Positions 45,424-52,669 of a DNA stretch of 64,000 nucleotides are shown here, one piece after another. The stretch's first letter is position 1, and each line of letters opens with the position of its first letter. The position numbers and the translations under genes were made by a program. Under the pieces are notes generated by a model, which was not told the DNA's origin, ran no database searches, and saw only the letters and a list, made by a program, of their open reading frames with translations. Source of the DNA: Candidatus Marinacidobacterales bacterium (lineage in GTDB: Bacteria > Acidobacteriota > Vicinamibacteria > Marinacidobacterales > DATDRI01); assembly GCA_965226495.1 (NCBI GenBank), contig OZ245365.1, positions 4,192,001 to 4,256,000 of the forward strand, written 5' to 3'.

Positions 45424-47436
45424 TTACCAGATATAATTCTTCGCGATGTCTCGCTTGTCTCGTCCCGCCAGGAGATGCACAACGCGGATCTTTTTCACCG
45501 TCACCGGTGACATCGCACCGAGAGGAATGTGAATGATACGCTTCTTCTGCGAAGCGGCGTAGCGATGCATCGCCGGTGAAGGCGCATCCTTCGCCAGGTG
45601 GACCACGAACTTTTCTTCACTGTAATCCACCGCCGACATGAGCAGAACTTCCCCTTTCTCCTTGGCAAGACGGTACTCCCGATCCTGCCAGACATCGAAG
45701 ACTCGGCGCGGTGGGTACGTCATCATAAATCCACCGTACGTCGCGCGCATGATACCCGGCCCCACAACCTGCCCCCCTGGATCGGTGGAGTAAAACGCCA
45801 TGTCCGACTCTTGTTCATCTTCGCCGAGCCATGTCATGCAGTAAGGAAAACTCTCGCCCTCGCGGTCTCGATCGAAAATCACGACGACCGATCCCGCCTC
45901 TCCCAATGAGCGACCCAGCTCCTGAACGTAGATTCGACCTTCGTGTAGGTTGCGGAGGGTTTCCCGCATGTCGATACCGTCGAGCATAGTGCTGGTAAAG
46001 GGCTCGGTTCGTTTGCGCTCGGCGGAGAGAATGGCGACCGCCTTGCTCTGAAGGTATCGCGCATAGTCTTCGATCACGATGTCTTCGGGGCGATGGGAGC
46101 AAAGGCCCGTCGGATCGAAAGCGTCGAGCCACTTTTGCGGGTCGTCGGTCGTCGGCCGCTCCCGCACCGGAACACGCATCGGACGCTGCTTGACGCGAAA
46201 GAAGCGTTTGCGAAACGTGATCTTCCGCGTGCCGAGATCGAGCTCCTCCCCATCGACGCGCGCCGTGGCCAGCTCCGCGGTCTCCTTCTGCCAGGGGTAG
46301 GTGCGCGCCACGTCGAAAACCTCCCAAGCCAGGTTGTCGTCTCCGACTCCCCGTGCGGCGACTGCCCATTCGTAGAGTCCGGGGACCAAGACACCCTGAA
46401 GCCGGGCGTAGCGGCGTCCAAAGTCCAAAAACACTTTCCGCTGCCAAGGTTGAACTTTTTCTCGGGTCTGCCCTTCGTACGATGAAGCGCCGATGCGCCA
46501 AACGACATTCTGCAGTGCTCGGCGATCGGGGAACCGTTTTTTCGTAAATGGGGCCTGGTGTCCGTGGTACGCGGCGTACCGGGCCACATTCATTGGGCGC
46601 TCTTTCGCTTGCCCATCCTTCTCTCCGGTGATGACCCTAAGCCCGTACTGGACCCATGAAACTTGACGCGAAAGCGCCGAGTGCAGCTCGACCTCCTCGG
46701 GAACCTCTCCATCCCGCAAAAGTTCGAAGACGGAATGTGCCAGCGGCGGATCGGGCAGGATCGCGGTGAGACTGTCTGGATGGAGATGGCGAATATCGGC
46801 GTGACTACGTTTGACGCGGACAAACGGCTCCGCAGTGGGCTTTTTCAACAGACGACCCACCGCCCGCACGTGCGCCGCCCCGAGCAGGGACAGCAATGGA
46901 CCAGGGGGGCAAACCTCTCTCGCTTGTTTGATGCGGTGAGCCATGCCCGATTCACGTTGTCGATCCACATCGCTCGACGGCGCTCGGTCACTTTGCTCGA
47001 CCAGAAGCTCGAGGTATTTCTGCGGCCCGAGGTTCCAGAGTGCGTAGGGATCGGGCACCGGATCCCTTCGACGCTCCTCGTAAGGAATATCGGGATCCAC
47101 GAAGAACACTGATTTTTCACGCTCGTTCGCCCAGCGGAGCGCTTCGGCAAACGGATCGCCGGGAACGGAGACCCAGACCAGAGCGTCTTCGCCACTTCGC
47201 TCGGAGATGACGAGCGAGATCTTGGGCAGACGCCGGATCGCTTTGAGAACGATATCGGTCAGGCTGGTTGGTAGCTCAACTGCGATGCCGGCGGGATTCA
47301 GCTCATCCAAAACGGCCCGCACCACCGAGGCCACGTCAAGGCGGTCGTGCACAACCGGAAGTAGGTGCACACCGGGGACAACCTCCGGAGTCAAAGCCTT
47401 CAGGTTGGTCTTACTCTTGTGGCGCTTTCGGCCCAT
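45424..47436 (-). CDS. Conserved hypothetical protein with TraB/Tiki-like N-terminus, MoxR partner
   Basis: PVVH, IAVELP, RE..MA, LLGAAH; later CS..PED..IE and DGIDMRETLRN. Confidence 0.55.
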   Translation of the reverse strand: MGRKRHKSKTNLKALTPEVVPGVHLLPVVHDRLDVASVVRAVLDELNPAGIAVELPTSLTDIVLKAIRRLPKISLVISERSGEDALVWVSVPGDPFAEALRWANEREKSVFFVDPDIPYEERRRDPVPDPYALWNLGPQKYLELLVEQSDRAPSSDVDRQRESGMAHRIKQAREVCPPGPLLSLLGAAHVRAVGRLLKKPTAEPFVRVKRSHADIRHLHPDSLTAILPDPPLAHSVFELLRDGEVPEEVELHSALSRQVSWVQYGLRVITGEKDGQAKERPMNVARYAAYHGHQAPFTKKRFPDRRALQNVVWRIGASSYEGQTREKVQPWQRKVFLDFGRRYARLQGVLVPGLYEWAVAARGVGDDNLAWEVFDVARTYPWQKETAELATARVDGEELDLGTRKITFRKRFFRVKQRPMRVPVRERPTTDDPQKWLDAFDPTGLCSHRPEDIVIEDYARYLQSKAVAILSAERKRTEPFTSTMLDGIDMRETLRNLHEGRIYVQELGRSLGEAGSVVVIFDRDREGESFPYCMTWLGEDEQESDMAFYSTDPGGQVVGPGIMRATYGGFMMTYPPRRVFDVWQDREYRLAKEKGEVLLMSAVDYSEEKFVVHLAKDAPSPAMHRYAASQKKRIIHIPLGAMSPVTVKKIRVVHLLAGRDKRDIAKNYIW

Positions 47437-47445
47437 ATCGACGCG

Positions 47446-48315
47446 TCAAAATATGTCGAACTGCTTGGCTTCCTCGGCTCCCATCGCCAATTCGAGCGCT
47501 TTGTCTACGGCGGACTTGGCGTCCGGCGCGCGCTTGGTGTGCAACATCTTCATCGCGTAGCGCACGACGTTCATCCCGTCCCTAACGGTGTAGCGAAGAT
47601 CGGCTTCGTGCGCGGCCTGCAGGTAGGCAAGGACGTAGTTCAGCACATCGTCGTCGGCGAAAGGAATCTGCTCCTTCAGAATCGCGCGTTCTTCATCTTC
47701 TTCGGGGAAGTCCACATAGATTTGCGGCATCAGGCGCGAGTGGATGTACTCAGGAACCTCGTAGGTCGACGCGTCTTCGTTCATGGTGGTCACGAAACGA
47801 AATTCGTCATGAGCAGAGACCTTGACGCCGGCAACAAGACTCTCCGCGTAACGACGATGATCGAGAAGTGGTGCCAAAGAGGCCCAAGACTTCTCGCTCA
47901 TACGATTGGCCTCGTCGAGAACGCAAGCCCCGCCTCGAACCATAGCGCTTACCAGAGGAGAGGCCATGTACCGTACCCCACCAGCGGGATCGAGGACCGG
48001 CGAAACCAAGAGATCCTCCGGGCGCGTATCCATCGTCGCCTGCATGATGTAGACCTCCAGGCCTAGCTCCTGTGCGGCGGCGCACGCCAGAGTCGTTTTG
48101 CCGACGCCCGGCTTGCCGAGGAGACGCGGATGAAGAGGTACATCCTTCTCTTCGACACGGGTCCAGGCGGCCAGAAGCTGCAACAAAACTTCGCGCTGCC
48201 CCACCCACGTCGGAACTTTCTTTTCCGGCGAAGTGAGGTGAAGAGTCACCCCTTCGATCTCGATGGTCTTGGCTTTCTTAACCGGCTTCACTCTGTCCCC
48301 ACGCGCATCACCCAT
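47446..48315 (-). CDS. MoxR-type AAA+ ATPase (AAA_5)
   Basis: Walker A GKPGVGKT, Walker B VLDE, TMN sensor, SRL Arg finger. Confidence 0.85.
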   Translation of the reverse strand: MGDARGDRVKPVKKAKTIEIEGVTLHLTSPEKKVPTWVGQREVLLQLLAAWTRVEEKDVPLHPRLLGKPGVGKTTLACAAAQELGLEVYIMQATMDTRPEDLLVSPVLDPAGGVRYMASPLVSAMVRGGACVLDEANRMSEKSWASLAPLLDHRRYAESLVAGVKVSAHDEFRFVTTMNEDASTYEVPEYIHSRLMPQIYVDFPEEDEERAILKEQIPFADDDVLNYVLAYLQAAHEADLRYTVRDGMNVVRYAMKMLHTKRAPDAKSAVDKALELAMGAEEAKQFDIF

Positions 48316-48707: not shown

Positions 48708-49130
48708 TTGTTCTGGGACAGCTCAGCGCTCGTTCCGCTCCTTCTACCTGAGCCGAGGTCTAACGAAATGGTTTCGCTCGCAAGCCTGGGCGAAGTCCCT
48801 GTTGTGTGGTGGGCCAGCCCGGTCGAATGCAAATCGGCTATCTACCGACGTCATCGGGAAGCGCCGATGCCGCGCTCAGTACTCGACATCGCCCTCGAGA
48901 GGTTGGCGTCCTTTTTCCTCTACGCCGATACAGTTCAAGCAACGGAGGAACTGCGCTCAAGAGCTGGGCGGCTGCTGGCCGTGCATCCGTTGCGGGCGGC
49001 GGATGCGTTGCAACTCGCGGCCGCCCTTGTCGCGTGCGCCGAAGAGCCGATCGGAGAAAAACTCGTTAGCCTGGATCAGCGGTTGCGTGAGGCGGCCATT
49101 CGAGAAGGCTTCGCGGTTATCCCTAACTGA
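48708..49130 (+). CDS. vapC: VapC PIN-domain toxin
   Basis: FWDSSALV, E, LRAADALQLA, SLD.RL. Confidence 0.9.
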   Translation: MFWDSSALVPLLLPEPRSNEMVSLASLGEVPVVWWASPVECKSAIYRRHREAPMPRSVLDIALERLASFFLYADTVQATEELRSRAGRLLAVHPLRAADALQLAAALVACAEEPIGEKLVSLDQRLREAAIREGFAVIPN

Positions 49131-50016
49131 GCCGTTGAGTGAGTGCAGCGCCGGGGACTTGGCCGGCGGCGTGATAGGAGCTTCGAACCAAAGGCCCGGA
49201 CTCGACGTGGCGAAAGCCAGTCCCTTCCCCGACGCGCTTCAGCTCGCGAAACTCGTCGGGGTGATAAAAGCGCTCAACCGGTAGGTGTTCCTTGGTTGGC
49301 TGGAGATATTGGCCGATCGTAAACACTTCGACGCGAGCCTGTACTAGTTCTTTCATGACACCCACGATCTCGTCAAAGTCCTCACCCAGCCCGACCATGA
49401 TTCCCGTCTTGCTCACGACTTCGGGAGCAAGCGTCTTGGCGCGCTCTAGCAGTTCTATCGACTGAGAATAGTTGGCTCCCGGTCGCACCCGCTTATAGAG
49501 GCGGGGGACGGTCTCGACGTTGTGGTTCAAAATCTCGGGTCGAGCCGTCAACACTCTTTCAAGGGCTGGCTTCGAACCTTTGAAGTCCGGTATCAAGACT
49601 TCGATGGTGGTATCCGGATTGTCGCGCCTCACGGCTTCGATGGTGCGGGCGAAGATAGTAGCGCCGCCGTCCGGTAGCTCATCGCGATTGACCGAAGTGA
49701 TCACCACGTGTCGCAAACCCATAGCCTTCACCGCCGCGGCGACACGAGACGGCTCGTTCAAATCGAGCGTGGTGGGCAATCCGGTGGTCACGGCGCAGAA
49801 GCCGCAGGCCCGAGTACAGATCTCACCCAGAATCATGAAGGTAGCGGTCCCCTGCCCCCAGCATTCGGCCACATTGGGACATCGGGCCTCCTCGCAAACA
49901 GTGTGGAGATTGTGCTCCCGCATCACCGACTTGAGGCGCGTGTAGTTTTCCCCGCCGGGGAGCCTTACCCGGAGCCAATCCGGCCGAGGGGATTTCGTAG
50001 CTACCATTGCCACCAT
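49123..50016 (-). CDS. lipA: Lipoyl synthase
   Basis: CEEARCPNVAEC, CTRACGFC, PLVRSSY. Confidence 0.96.
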   Translation of the reverse strand: MVAMVATKSPRPDWLRVRLPGGENYTRLKSVMREHNLHTVCEEARCPNVAECWGQGTATFMILGEICTRACGFCAVTTGLPTTLDLNEPSRVAAAVKAMGLRHVVITSVNRDELPDGGATIFARTIEAVRRDNPDTTIEVLIPDFKGSKPALERVLTARPEILNHNVETVPRLYKRVRPGANYSQSIELLERAKTLAPEVVSKTGIMVGLGEDFDEIVGVMKELVQARVEVFTIGQYLQPTKEHLPVERFYHPDEFRELKRVGEGTGFRHVESGPLVRSSYHAAGQVPGAALTQRLS

Positions 50017-50021
50017 TCTAT

Positions 50022-51325
50022 AGAGATCTAGACAGGATGGAAACGCGGGAGGTCGCCGGCTACGGGCAAGCGCTTCCGCCGAGAGGAATCGATCTTCCCT
50101 TGGATGAAAGCAACACCGAACGTCCGCTCAGCAGTTAGACGATTGTGTGGTCCGCAGTGAAGGCGCAGATTCCGCTCGGCGTGGCTGCCATTCAAGGCAA
50201 AGGCCCGCAAGTGCTCGACTTCGAGTCCCGTGCGTGCACGACACCGGGTCCGGTCTTGACCCCGGAATTCACACTGGTAGTCGGCCCGATCTTGAACGCG
50301 CTCCCGGACCTCAGAAGGTATGTAGCGGGACCTCGCGGAAACCTTGTCCAGACGGGATTTTTTGTTACTTTTCGACACCCTCTGGAGTCGCCGTTCACGC
50401 TTCCTCTTCAGATCTTTCTTGTCGAGCGCGATATCCAGGGCCTGCTCCATGATCTCGGCCATGCGTTGCTGGGAGTTTTCGACACCGAGGACCTCAGCCA
50501 GCCGCTCGAACTTCTCCTTAAACTTTCGGTCGGCGGCGAAGCGGAAATTGAACACCTCCGGCTTGGCGGGCTCGAGGATAGTCGGTGACACCCACGGAGT
50601 CGGGCGCGCTTTCTGAACCGGCAGCGGCTGGGGCGCCGGCATGGTTGGCACCTTCCTAACCGAGGGCGCGAAGACGGGCTTGGGTCGGAGCGCGATAAGG
50701 TGCTCCTCTGCCTCTCGTTTGGTCATTCCAGCACAATCCCCAAGAAGCTTCTCGACGTTGCTCTCGGTGAGAACAGGGGCGAGGAGACCCGCCACGGTGA
50801 GACTCAATCGGTTCTCAGCTAACGCCACGAGTAACTGAGGGAACCGTCTCGACACATTAGCCACCTGAATCCGCCGGGCGACCGAGCCTTCGCTCAGATT
50901 CAATCGCTCGGTACAGTACGCGAACAGACTCTTATACCCACGTTGCAGATAGCCCTTTCTTCTCGACATCTCCGCGATGTGAGCGATGATGAGCGCTACG
51001 TTTCGCTTCTCTGCACGGACCCGCTGCTCGGTTGAGCGGTCGAGCTCTTCGGTGGATAGACTTTCGAGCGTTTCGAAGTATGTCTTTACTTTTTCGATCA
51101 TGGCCGTTGCCCCCTCTCCTAAATATAGCAACGGACTTTTTTGTAGCCTCAGTGGTCTTGGGCGAGTAGCAAACGGACTCAGTCTAAAAAATACTCAAGA
51201 TTGTAGAGAAAGGGTGCGAGAGGGCACGTGTGGGTTTCCTGAAGGTAACTGTGCTAATAGCTCTTTGCTTTTCGATTTCGTATCACGAAACTTGTCAAGT
51301 CTTTCTTGATCTTTTTTTCCGCTGC
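50022..51325 (-). mobile_element. HNH-endonuclease-only insertion with TTCTAT target duplication
   Basis: TTCTAT at 50016-50021 and 51326-51331; removal abuts the E2 stop and lipA start. Confidence 0.6.
50028..51101 (-). CDS. DUF222-like protein with C-terminal HNH endonuclease
   Basis: GYKSLFAYCTERLNLSEGS..RRI; SRYIP..V..R..QC..C..EH..G..NLRLHCGPHN; AGGAGAGG RBS. Confidence 0.8.
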   Translation of the reverse strand: MIEKVKTYFETLESLSTEELDRSTEQRVRAEKRNVALIIAHIAEMSRRKGYLQRGYKSLFAYCTERLNLSEGSVARRIQVANVSRRFPQLLVALAENRLSLTVAGLLAPVLTESNVEKLLGDCAGMTKREAEEHLIALRPKPVFAPSVRKVPTMPAPQPLPVQKARPTPWVSPTILEPAKPEVFNFRFAADRKFKEKFERLAEVLGVENSQQRMAEIMEQALDIALDKKDLKRKRERRLQRVSKSNKKSRLDKVSARSRYIPSEVRERVQDRADYQCEFRGQDRTRCRARTGLEVEHLRAFALNGSHAERNLRLHCGPHNRLTAERTFGVAFIQGKIDSSRRKRLPVAGDLPRFHPV

Positions 51326-51331
51326 TTCTAT

Positions 51332-52669
51332 CTACAAAATCTTCTCATCCCAGGTCTCGAGCTTCTTCCTCAGTTCGGCCATGAACTGATCCCCAACCGC
51401 GCCGTCGATGACGCGATGATCAAAAGTCAACGACAAGTAGATCATTGAACGGACTGCTATGGCGTCGTTCACAACGACGGGGCGCTTGTGAATCCCTCCT
51501 AGGCCCAGAATCGCAACCTCGGGCTGATTAATGATGGGCGTGCCGTAAAGGGCTCCGAAGGGGCCGGGATTCGTGACCGTGAAGGTCCCACCCTGAACCT
51601 CTTCCGGCTGGAGCTTCTTTTCCCGCGCCCGCGTCGCCAGATCGTTGACCGTTCGCTGCAAACCGAGGAAGCTCTTCTCGTCGGCGCGATGAAGTACGGG
51701 CACGATGAGTCCCCAATCGAGAGCGACGGCGATCCCGATATTGAGATCCTTCTTATAAATAATGTTGCTTCCATCCAAGGAAGAGTTCACGATCGGAAAC
51801 GCCTTCAGCCCGTGGAGCACGGCCCGGATGAAAAAAGGCATGTAGGTGAGCTTGACGCCTTCCTCCCGCTCGAAGCGTCCTCTGCTCTCCTGGCGCAGTT
51901 TCACGACCCTAGTCATGTCTGCTTCCCAGACGGTTGAGACATGCGCCGACGTCCGCCGCGACATGACCATGTGCTCGGCAATGGACTTGCGCATCACGCT
52001 CATCGGCTCCGAACGCACCCGACCTGTATAACCGGCGGTGGGAGAAGGTACAGGCGCAGCTGCCAAAGGCACGGCTCGGGTGGGCTCGGGGGGCGGTGGC
52101 GCGATCGCTTCGGCGGGAGCGGGAGCAGCAGCAGCAGGGGGCGCGCCTTGCTCCAAGAAACTCGAAATATCCTGCTTGGTGATTCGTCCTCCGGCACCGG
52201 TGCCTTGAATCTGCGACAGATCGGTGTTGTGCTCCCGCGCCATCCGTCGAACTAGAGGGGACGAGCGTTGGCGATCACCGACGGCGGCTTCGGCAGACGT
52301 TGGTTCCGGAGCCCCCTCCTTAGGTGGAGCCGCCACTTCAGGTGGAGCCGCCACTTCGCTCGGGACCTCGACCGTTGGCTGCGTGGTAGCCAAGGAGGGC
52401 TCGGCGGCCACGGACTCTACGGCCTCCCCCGCCTCACCACCGATGACACCCACCACCGTATTGATGGGCACCGTCTCGCCTTCTCCGACCTTTATCTCGG
52501 TGAGCACTCCGGCCGTCGGCGAAGGGATCTCGGTATCGACTTTGTCGGTCGAGATCTCGAAGAGCGGCTCGTCCCGCTCGACGTGATCGCCGGCCTTCTT
52601 GTACCATTTGGTGATCGTTCCCTCGGCGATGCTTTCGCCCATTTGGGGCATGATGATCGGTGTCGCCAT
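51332..52669 (-). CDS. 2-oxoacid dehydrogenase E2 dihydrolipoamide acyltransferase
   Basis: Lipoyl STDKV, PSBD SPLVRR..GTGAGGRIT, DHRVIDG. Confidence 0.93.
   Translation of the reverse strand: MATPIIMPQMGESIAEGTITKWYKKAGDHVERDEPLFEISTDKVDTEIPSPTAGVLTEIKVGEGETVPINTVVGVIGGEAGEAVESVAAEPSLATTQPTVEVPSEVAAPPEVAAPPKEGAPEPTSAEAAVGDRQRSSPLVRRMAREHNTDLSQIQGTGAGGRITKQDISSFLEQGAPPAAAAPAPAEAIAPPPPEPTRAVPLAAAPVPSPTAGYTGRVRSEPMSVMRKSIAEHMVMSRRTSAHVSTVWEADMTRVVKLRQESRGRFEREEGVKLTYMPFFIRAVLHGLKAFPIVNSSLDGSNIIYKKDLNIGIAVALDWGLIVPVLHRADEKSFLGLQRTVNDLATRAREKKLQPEEVQGGTFTVTNPGPFGALYGTPIINQPEVAILGLGGIHKRPVVVNDAIAVRSMIYLSLTFDHRVIDGAVGDQFMAELRKKLETWDEKIL

Follow-up and report, generated by a model that had tools for sequence, protein, structure and literature searches.

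An inserted DUF222-like/HNH cassette between an E2 gene and lipA belongs to an old multicopy family of Vicinamibacteria that resembles REP13E12 repeats

We analysed a stretch of 64,000 nucleotides (nt), hereafter the window, from Candidatus Marinacidobacterales bacterium (GenBank assembly GCA_965226495.1, contig OZ245365.1, positions 4,192,001 to 4,256,000), in which a single open reading frame (ORF) for a predicted HNH nuclease of 357 amino acids (aa) is wedged between the genes for dihydrolipoamide acyltransferase (E2) and lipoyl synthase (lipA). The ORF and its leader form an inserted cassette that belongs to a family of more than 30 copies in the source genome. Coordinates are window positions; G000 denotes the source genome, and G001 and G002 the other two species of its genus. 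All genes of the region are carried on the minus strand, and in their direction the features are as follows.

51332–52669, minus strand: E2 gene (Pfam 2-oxoacid_dh 4e-84, Biotin_lipoyl and E3_binding; NCBIfam SucB-type 7e-128).
51326–51331, no strand assigned: upstream copy of TTCTAT, which reads ATAGAA on the gene strand and separates the E2 stop from the first bases that align across the family.
51312–51325, minus strand: 5′ edge of the cassette, GCAGCGG and then an A-run (AAAAAAA, gene strand), where homology to the paralogs starts.
51293–51299, minus strand: CTTGACA, a −35-like motif and the most strongly conserved part of the leader, kept in subfamilies A and B and in cluster C.
51102–51311, minus strand: leader, about 46% G+C, conserved in modules and holding the next two features.
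51122–51130, minus strand: TGCTATATT, extended −10-like.
51110–51119, minus strand: GGAGAGGGGG, Shine–Dalgarno sequence.
50028–51101, minus strand: ORF of 357 aa with a ParB-like helix-turn-helix (HTH) domain (DUF222-like), a ribbon-helix-helix (RHH)-like region and an HNH nuclease, as predicted from profile, hhalign and fold matches.
50022–50068, minus strand: locus-specific 3′ tail that includes the usual stop position of the family, common to the G001 copy and, more loosely, to the G002 copy.
50015–50021, minus strand: downstream TTCTAT copy (50016–50021), overlapping the probable lipA −10 box TAGAAT (50015–50020), from relatives' junctions and a promoter scan.
49123–50016, minus strand: lipA (NCBIfam lipoyl synthase 2e-127).

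The original prediction took the two TTCTAT copies for the borders of a mobile element without a transposase, and much of what it described is exact in the sequence. The copies are separated by 1304 bp, the TAG stop of E2 (51332–51334) directly adjoins the upstream copy, and the only ORF between them runs from an ATG at 51101 to a stop at 50028, 6 bp short of the downstream copy, which the annotated lipA ATG overlaps. The 224-nt leader is AT-rich as described, with 46% G+C compared with about 60% around it. Of the 66 inverted repeats at 49950–51400, the 25 longest, which were listed, include no terminal pair, and Pfam and NCBIfam gave the ORF only weak DUF222 and HNH matches and no transposase, recombinase or reverse transcriptase. 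That the element ends 6 bp past its stop is true of the window ORF but not of the family, in most copies of which the ORF stops further upstream, at the TAG of TCGTAGCC. The window copy carries a deletion of about 25 nt at this sequence and its frame is therefore shifted, so that the usual TAG (50060–50062) lies out of frame and the ORF continues to 50028.

To establish whether the E2–lipA site is ancestrally empty, we turned to related genomes, in all of which (41/41) lipA was located; the loci of 29 relatives were read, 18 of the junctions at the level of sequence, and one locus broken by a contig end (G007) was left out of the informative set. As had been anticipated, in 26/26 informative loci outside the genus E2 is the immediate upstream neighbour of lipA and no HNH gene intervenes, and because of this arrangement the HNH unit must be an insertion; spacers in the 18 junctions ranged from about 5 to 350 nt. 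Within the genus the site is occupied in 3/3 species, G001 and G002 carrying degraded HNH copies with a common junction on the lipA side (...GTCTAGATCTTTATAGAATGG in G001 versus ...GTCTAGATCTCTATAGAATGG in the window). Since both congeners have degraded copies at the same 3′ junction, the insertion predates the genus, and the cassette entered the E2–lipA junction before the genus diversified. The 5′ parts of both congeneric copies have been overwritten by IS3, IS256 and IS110 insertion sequence (IS) elements and other genes. The interval looks like an insertion dump in both species, with an IS3 element (rve), an M78 peptidase/HTH pair, a methyltransferase and a beta-lactamase-like fragment in G001, and with an IS256 (Mutator) element and an IS110 element, the latter splitting the HNH relic, in G002. 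Among the joints listed from the short contigs of four metagenome runs, none skips the insert.

Next, the family was delineated. The window ORF has 50 protein matches in G000. At the DNA level, subfamily A comprises about 15 copies that are 72–82% identical to the window copy, and at least 17 copies are more distant. A second group, subfamily B, shows about 35% protein identity, and the copies of the younger cluster C are 86–91% alike; those of a further lineage, c1922/c1438, are 93% alike. The empty sites and the close and distant copies thus bear out a unit that was inserted, that is dispersed in many copies and that has a single DUF222-like/HNH gene. For 11 subfamily A ORFs (55 pairs; c2410 and c3735, with an internal stop, the frame-split c4547 and the truncated c2778 were left out), the median ratio of nonsynonymous to synonymous divergence (dN/dS) was 0.17 at a median dS of 0.90; the copies are therefore old and their proteins constrained, that is, the family is under purifying selection. 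By the names of its homologs the host range is the Vicinamibacteria (Acidobacteriota). Further candidates for empty sites between congeners were set aside: the flanks of c943 lie 52 kb apart in G002, the c4366 site in G001 holds small relics only, G002 has orthologous occupants at the sites of b3212 and b4462, both of cluster C, and a locus occupied in G001 and empty in G000 (L129) is not flush, 2.26 kb replacing 22 nt.

The copies have one sharp edge. Homology starts at the A-run or a few bases before it: GCAGCG and the A-run are common to the window copy, c6047 and c4294, the A-run is present in 14/15 aligned copies, subfamily B has an A-rich run and cluster C has GAGAAAAATAAT. Cluster C copies carry an additional ~55 nt with a terminal hairpin at the 5′ end, nearly confined to them; a REP-like target was considered for this hairpin and rejected, because outside cluster C it turned up at a single place. 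On the 3′ side the edge is ragged, also within cluster C.

Analysis of placement showed that in 18/32 copies the stop codon of a co-oriented ORF of at least 100 aa falls inside a 79-nt interval at the 5′ edge, compared with 14.5% of random intervals and with 3/32 for anti-oriented ORFs; three copies have the TGA of CTTGACA itself as the stop of the upstream ORF. These counts overstate independence, because the copies are kin and some have paralogous kinase flanks in common. The copies tend toward the 3′ ends of co-oriented genes. The kinase flanks belong to a large expansion of Ser/Thr kinase genes in G000, with products ending in ...LNWFEEL(K/E)RLVP (for example, in the flanks of c4667, c4547, c6047, c6137, c2410, c2778, b1127 and b94); HNH cassettes are frequent between these paralogs, and three have in common a ~300-nt region upstream of the next kinase gene. 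The cluster C copy b176 (L054, G000:C1 ~176350–176460) lies about 20 nt downstream of the 3′ end of a putative tRNA, a tRNA-Sec candidate whose anticodon loop reads TCA and whose extra arm is long. Beside c4366 (L003:565–1228, G000:C1 ~4366050–4366713) there is a separate repeat of about 450–650 nt with dozens of matches at 70–83% in the five family genomes searched.

We also examined the protein itself. The label DUF222-like/HNH is upheld by collinearity with a DUF222–HNH protein, but the relation is remote and DUF222 stays below the Pfam cut-off: the window protein matched DUF222 (PF02720) with 15.9 bits against a cut-off of 24.4 (E=0.009), short of the gathering score. Among 47 aligned family members, DUF222 was matched in 6/47 (best 0.001) and Pfam HNH in 8/47 (E up to 0.01); a PHROG search assigned the C-terminus to HNH endonucleases (3.5e-7), and the best NCBIfam match of the HNH part was a weak one to IscB (E=9e-4). 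Alignment of the family with hhalign against a bona fide DUF222–HNH protein of G000 (L133:1135–2430; Pfam DUF222 3e-22, HNH 1e-6) gave a probability of 82% and E=1e-5 over 292 collinear columns that cover both domains. In an AlphaFold2 model of the 357-aa protein (predicted local distance difference test score 80.5), residues 30–140 resembled the DNA-binding domains of ParB, KorB and Spo0J (Z 6.8–7.9; with SopB, 4.5–7.9), residues ~179–247 weakly resembled RHH-type antitoxins and regulators (Z 4–4.8), and residues ~253–332 matched the HNH fold (Z 5.5–7.7; GVE2 HNH, McrA, IscB and Cap5), although these Z values are moderate and helical folds can match through arrangement alone. The Zn ligands C277, C287, C316 and H319, together with N320, are invariant in the 47 sequences, and H297, taken as the catalytic histidine, is conserved in at least 90% of them. 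Searches of solved structures by sequence gave nothing below E=0.18 and no ParB match, and Foldseek gave nothing at E up to 0.001. The model and the alignments are consistent with a modular, predicted site-specific nuclease that is a remote relative of the DUF222–HNH (REP13E12-type) proteins.

Comparison of the three congeners revealed that the cassette at E2–lipA is not the same family member in each. The window copy is closest to c4667 and c4366 (81–82%). The G001 relic is closest to c4059 (84.6%), does not have the window copy among its eight best G000 matches and is 42–86% identical to it per 100-nt interval over the cassette body, and the G002 relic is 91–94% identical to the c1922/c1438 lineage. 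The tail of about 40 nt between the usual family stop and lipA is common to G000 and G001 and looser in G002, and it is absent from c4059 and c4667. Host genes at the locus show a dS of 0.40–0.64 between congeners, below the divergence of the paralog lineages. These alignments are most simply read as one ancient insertion event, after which other members of the family replaced the cassette body through gene conversion or recombination. Behind an ABC-permease gene, G000 carries a subfamily A copy (plus strand), G001 a different subfamily A copy (minus) and G002 a cluster C copy (minus); a further locus, at 3.82 Mb, carries a subfamily B copy (plus) in G000 and, within about 15 nt of the same flank, a subfamily A copy (minus) in G002. 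The evidence points to cassettes that occupy fixed sites and whose bodies appear to have been swapped between family lineages.

We therefore arrive at a reading that we hold with about even confidence: the cassette is an old, multicopy, selfish, homing-like unit of the REP13E12 kind, spread and renewed by recombination or gene conversion. The nuclease would bind and cut DNA at or near cassettes or landing sites; the break would be repaired from another copy, resulting in gene conversion or cassette replacement; and occasional long-range moves might be made as cargo of ordinary transposons, as suggested by the ISL3 elements of G018 described below. A more specific version, which we regard as tentative, is that the family maintains itself, the ParB-like domain recognizing cassette or landing-site DNA and the HNH domain breaking it, so that copies overwrite one another and re-seed a small number of landing pads at gene 3′ ends. 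If so, homing would act among paralogous chromosomal sites rather than between alleles, and such homing would also explain the behaviour of REP13E12-type repeats in general.

Several observations weigh against the homing-like reading. No cleavage site, binding site or donor–recipient pair was seen, and the nuclease-driven step is one that we infer. Strong purifying selection on many copies is also compatible with a host function. No young copies above 94% identity were found in G000, G001 and G002, nor any recent presence/absence polymorphism of a bare cassette. The opposite orientations at the permease and 3.82-Mb loci require re-insertion or inversion, for which simple gene conversion is insufficient. 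The E2–lipA junction holds one exact core with only 13 and 11 nt to spare, a configuration that recombination between unrelated flanks would not readily produce, and the first alignable bases (GCAGCGG) directly adjoin ATAGAA, as a true target-site duplication would need.

Transposons of other families offer an alternative vehicle, in which the transposases of ISL3 and other elements, or segmental duplication, spread the copies, the IS ends erode and the nuclease is irrelevant to mobility. The evidence for such transport comes from G018, a genome of the same order with at least six copies that are 99.2–99.8% alike. Their core measures 1304 nt, as in the window, and likewise starts at the A-run; it directly follows an ISL3-family right end, and after it comes another right-end fragment of ISL3 with 77% identity to that end. 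A stretch of about 220 nt in the left-hand piece has at least 25 further matches in G018 at 83% identity, and these are copies of a ~1.78-kb ISL3 element, nine of which were compared and are 99.1–99.7% alike. An ISL3 transposase gene (Pfam 2e-71) adjoins the core at three loci, one of the six copies (L141) is a 3-kb ISL3+HNH composite flanked by a perfect 8-bp duplication (GGAAAAAT), and another has AAATTAAC on both sides. The burst is best explained, from the arrangement of these ends, as ISL3 transposition with the cassette as cargo.

Cargo transport is also consistent with ISL3-derived miniature inverted-repeat transposable elements (MITEs) in or beside cassettes of G001 and G002, and with G000 copies that sit between paralogous Ser/Thr kinase genes with common flanks, as co-duplication predicts. 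However, IS remnants are missing from the edges of the window copy and of most copies in G000; the ISL3 ends, inverted repeats and 8-bp duplication of G018 have no counterpart at the window copy, and the single ISL3-derived relic of G000 lies elsewhere in the genome. The same 5′ edge recurs in three subfamilies with a protein identity of only about 35%, which argues for a unit with its own defined end, and body swapping on a retained tail is left unexplained. Passive transport is unlikely in our judgement. The relic in G000 is a MITE of about 670 nt with terminal inverted repeats GGGTCTACGCGGATTCGTGTGGGT... (C1:6275118–6275779), single-copy there and 95–99% identical to copies in G001 and G002 (L116, L121 and L124), of which one splits an HNH cassette and another stands 74 nt ahead of the A-run of a cassette. 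The ISL3 right-end pieces that frame the G018 core (L140–L145) carry repeated GTTTTCCACAATC motifs; one pair forms a palindrome with a 10-bp stem, which we take to resemble DnaA boxes.

The constraint on the old copies could instead reflect a domesticated host gene family, such as a nuclease or regulator in repair, defence or gene control, which expanded by duplication and of which the insert is one paralog. Each copy has its own conserved promoter-like motifs and Shine–Dalgarno sequence, and the family was found in 44/121 genomes sampled from the class, often in many copies (0/24 genomes of the family f3). Against a host role, of the 15 subfamily A copies three have in-frame stops, one is frame-split and one is truncated, and the E2–lipA copies of both congeners are degraded and riddled with IS elements. 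Moreover, copy number and location vary widely between species, the position between a conserved gene pair is typical of selfish inserts, and PADLOC defence families gave no match for the window protein. We consider domestication, too, to be improbable.

Quite unlikely, in our view, is the autonomous transposon of the original prediction, in which the HNH protein would cut the target with a 6-bp stagger, its own locus would be inserted there and TTCTAT would be the resulting target-site duplication. Its attraction is clear: the unit is discrete, 1.3 kb long and inserted with almost no extra DNA, and a perfect 6-bp repeat stands flush with the first alignable base on the 5′ side and 6 bp past the stop on the 3′ side. 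When the unit and one repeat are removed, E2-TAG-A-TAGAAT-lipA does remain, a junction comparable in type to those of relatives with empty sites, as had been predicted, but the right-hand repeat in this product is native to lipA. The relatives G003, G006, G008 and G022, with empty sites, have TAGAAT 5–7 nt before the lipA ATG (TAGAATG upstream of lipA in 3/18 junctions read, namely G003, G006 and G008; G022 is identical over that stretch), and a scan of the window called a promoter TTTCCA-17-TAGAAT with TAGAAT as the −10 box. Because some relatives with empty sites keep TAGAAT and the scan calls it a −10 box, the downstream copy is native lipA sequence.

TAGAAT probably serves a leaderless lipA mRNA as its −10 box, the true start of lipA being likely the second in-frame ATG at 50007. 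The candidate promoter of lipA spans 50005–50020, and the corresponding −35 (TTTCCA) falls within the HNH ORF, at its 3′ end. Among the 24 runs listed there is no RNA run that carries the stretch; 20 public runs contain it. Downstream of lipA on the minus strand lie a gene for an AAA_5 (MoxR/dynein-type) ATPase (47446–48315) and a 670-aa ORF with no Pfam match (45424–47436).

In 100,000 mononucleotide shuffles of the 16 nt from the E2 stop to the A-run and the 37 nt from the last family-alignable base to lipA, any shared 6-mer arose in 4.1%; this counts only marginally for the duplication, and the figure is post hoc. An alternative parse of the TAGA-rich junction, with TAGAT repeated, fits equally and leaves a spacer nearer to the lengths in relatives. 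Across 29 paralogs (3/32 copies, with no 5′ edge, were dropped), the longest flanking direct repeat averaged 5.17 nt compared with 4.91 nt in 812 mismatched controls, and the other two copies that start with GCAGCG have no flanking repeat. G001 and G002 have no ATAGAA after the E2 stop, albeit with their 5′ parts overwritten, and the ragged 3′ ends of cluster C also speak against a transposon. Because the copies are old, the paralog test has little power and leaves the duplication unsupported rather than refuted. To judge from these junctions, the TTCTAT pair most probably reflects a coincidence of the lipA −10 box with a TAGA-rich junction rather than transposition. The burst in G018, the one recent burst that was found, gives no sign of self-transposition because ISL3 ends accompany every copy, and our comparisons give fixed sites and swapped bodies, with nothing that shows a staggered cut by the HNH protein mobilizing its own locus; that proposal is unsupported rather than excluded. 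Short flanking repeats beside promoter boxes are a weak basis on which to propose a new transposition system.

Last, we analysed the leader, for which a covarying RNA structure had been suggested. In all subfamilies the blocks have the same order: the A-run; CTTGACA about 10–20 nt further on; a poorly conserved span of about 170 nt; AAAAAGTnCGTTGyTATATT, similar to an extended −10; a Shine–Dalgarno sequence rich in G; and the ATG. In cluster C, as an exception, the ATG directly follows a TATAAA box. The 14 aligned subfamily A leaders have a median pairwise identity of 60.5% (91 pairs), and 29/224 columns are at least 93% conserved, nearly all within the blocks, among them ACTTGACA; CTTGACA is kept in subfamily B and cluster C as well. 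A palindromic operator at ACTTGACAAGT was rejected, since its right half differs between copies and only CTTGACA is conserved. RNAalifold gave −2.2 on the 14 leaders, with no shared fold on the one strand that was folded, and an Rfam search of the leader gave no match at E up to 1. Given that conservation is confined to promoter-like and ribosome-binding blocks and that no fold is shared, the leader looks like promoter or regulatory DNA and not like a guide RNA. An RNA-guided system, with the leader of about 225 nt and its conserved blocks before every copy serving the HNH protein as the HEARO/omega RNA serves IscB, has the IscB profile match and IscB fold likeness (Z 5.9–6.2) in its favour and is very nearly refuted by the leader analysis and by the lack of a RuvC domain in Pfam, NCBIfam and fold comparisons.

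The cassette can be compared with known systems. DUF222–HNH repeats have been known since 1999, and we know of no mechanism or function for them; Gordon et al. in 1999 reportedly described the unit size of REP13E12 and a phage attachment site. The REP13E12/DUF222–HNH units of actinobacteria (PF02720 + PF01844) are the closest known kind, and the cassette is best read as a variant of them rather than as evidence for an undescribed transposition system. Both consist of one ORF with an N-terminal DUF222-type and a C-terminal HNH domain, and both are dispersed in multiple copies of about 1.3–1.4 kb with no transposase. A 2026 preprint places REP13E12 loci among the most gene-converted regions of M. 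tuberculosis, with 87 events in 10/14 genes, and describes them as having no defined biological function (PMC13061034), and another paper describes them as repetitive elements near IS elements in M. tuberculosis (PMC10589994). Such hot spots of gene conversion find their likeness in the body swapping seen here. The cassette differs in occurring in another phylum (Acidobacteriota, Vicinamibacteria), in its remote sequence relation, and in having an RHH-like middle, a conserved promoter-like leader and a bias to gene 3′ ends. In a literature search, which did not extend to supplements, neither this family nor a mechanism was found described.

A second parallel is provided by the free-standing homing endonuclease genes of phages, such as mob (HNH) and seg (GIY-YIG) in T-even phages. 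They too are promoter-bearing nuclease genes wedged between conserved co-oriented genes with hardly any extra DNA and with no inverted repeats or duplications; their DNA-binding and nuclease domains are modular, and they spread by break repair that leaves mosaic flanks. As at such genes, the nuclease gene here stands between conserved genes whose alleles outside the genus are empty. In contrast to phages, with one site per genome, the cassettes occupy dozens of unrelated chromosomal sites in a bacterium, and the copies are old (dS ~0.9).

Other systems share single traits. ISL3 elements with passenger genes would account for the G018 core, with its ISL3 ends and the 8-bp AT-rich duplication of one composite, whereas the window copy has neither. 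IscB with its omega (HEARO) RNA has a similar HNH fold and a conserved non-coding stretch upstream, but the cassette has no RuvC domain, RNA fold or Rfam match. The HTH-containing DNA-binding domains of ParB, KorB, Spo0J and SopB superpose on residues 30–140, although the window protein has no N-terminal CTPase domain of ParB. The model-based match would assign DUF222 as a ParB-like DNA-binding domain, and the spread of such genes becomes a concrete question of binding, cleavage and conversion. The family in Vicinamibacteria offers dozens of copies per genome, clear empty sites and three loci at which one member has replaced another in sister species.

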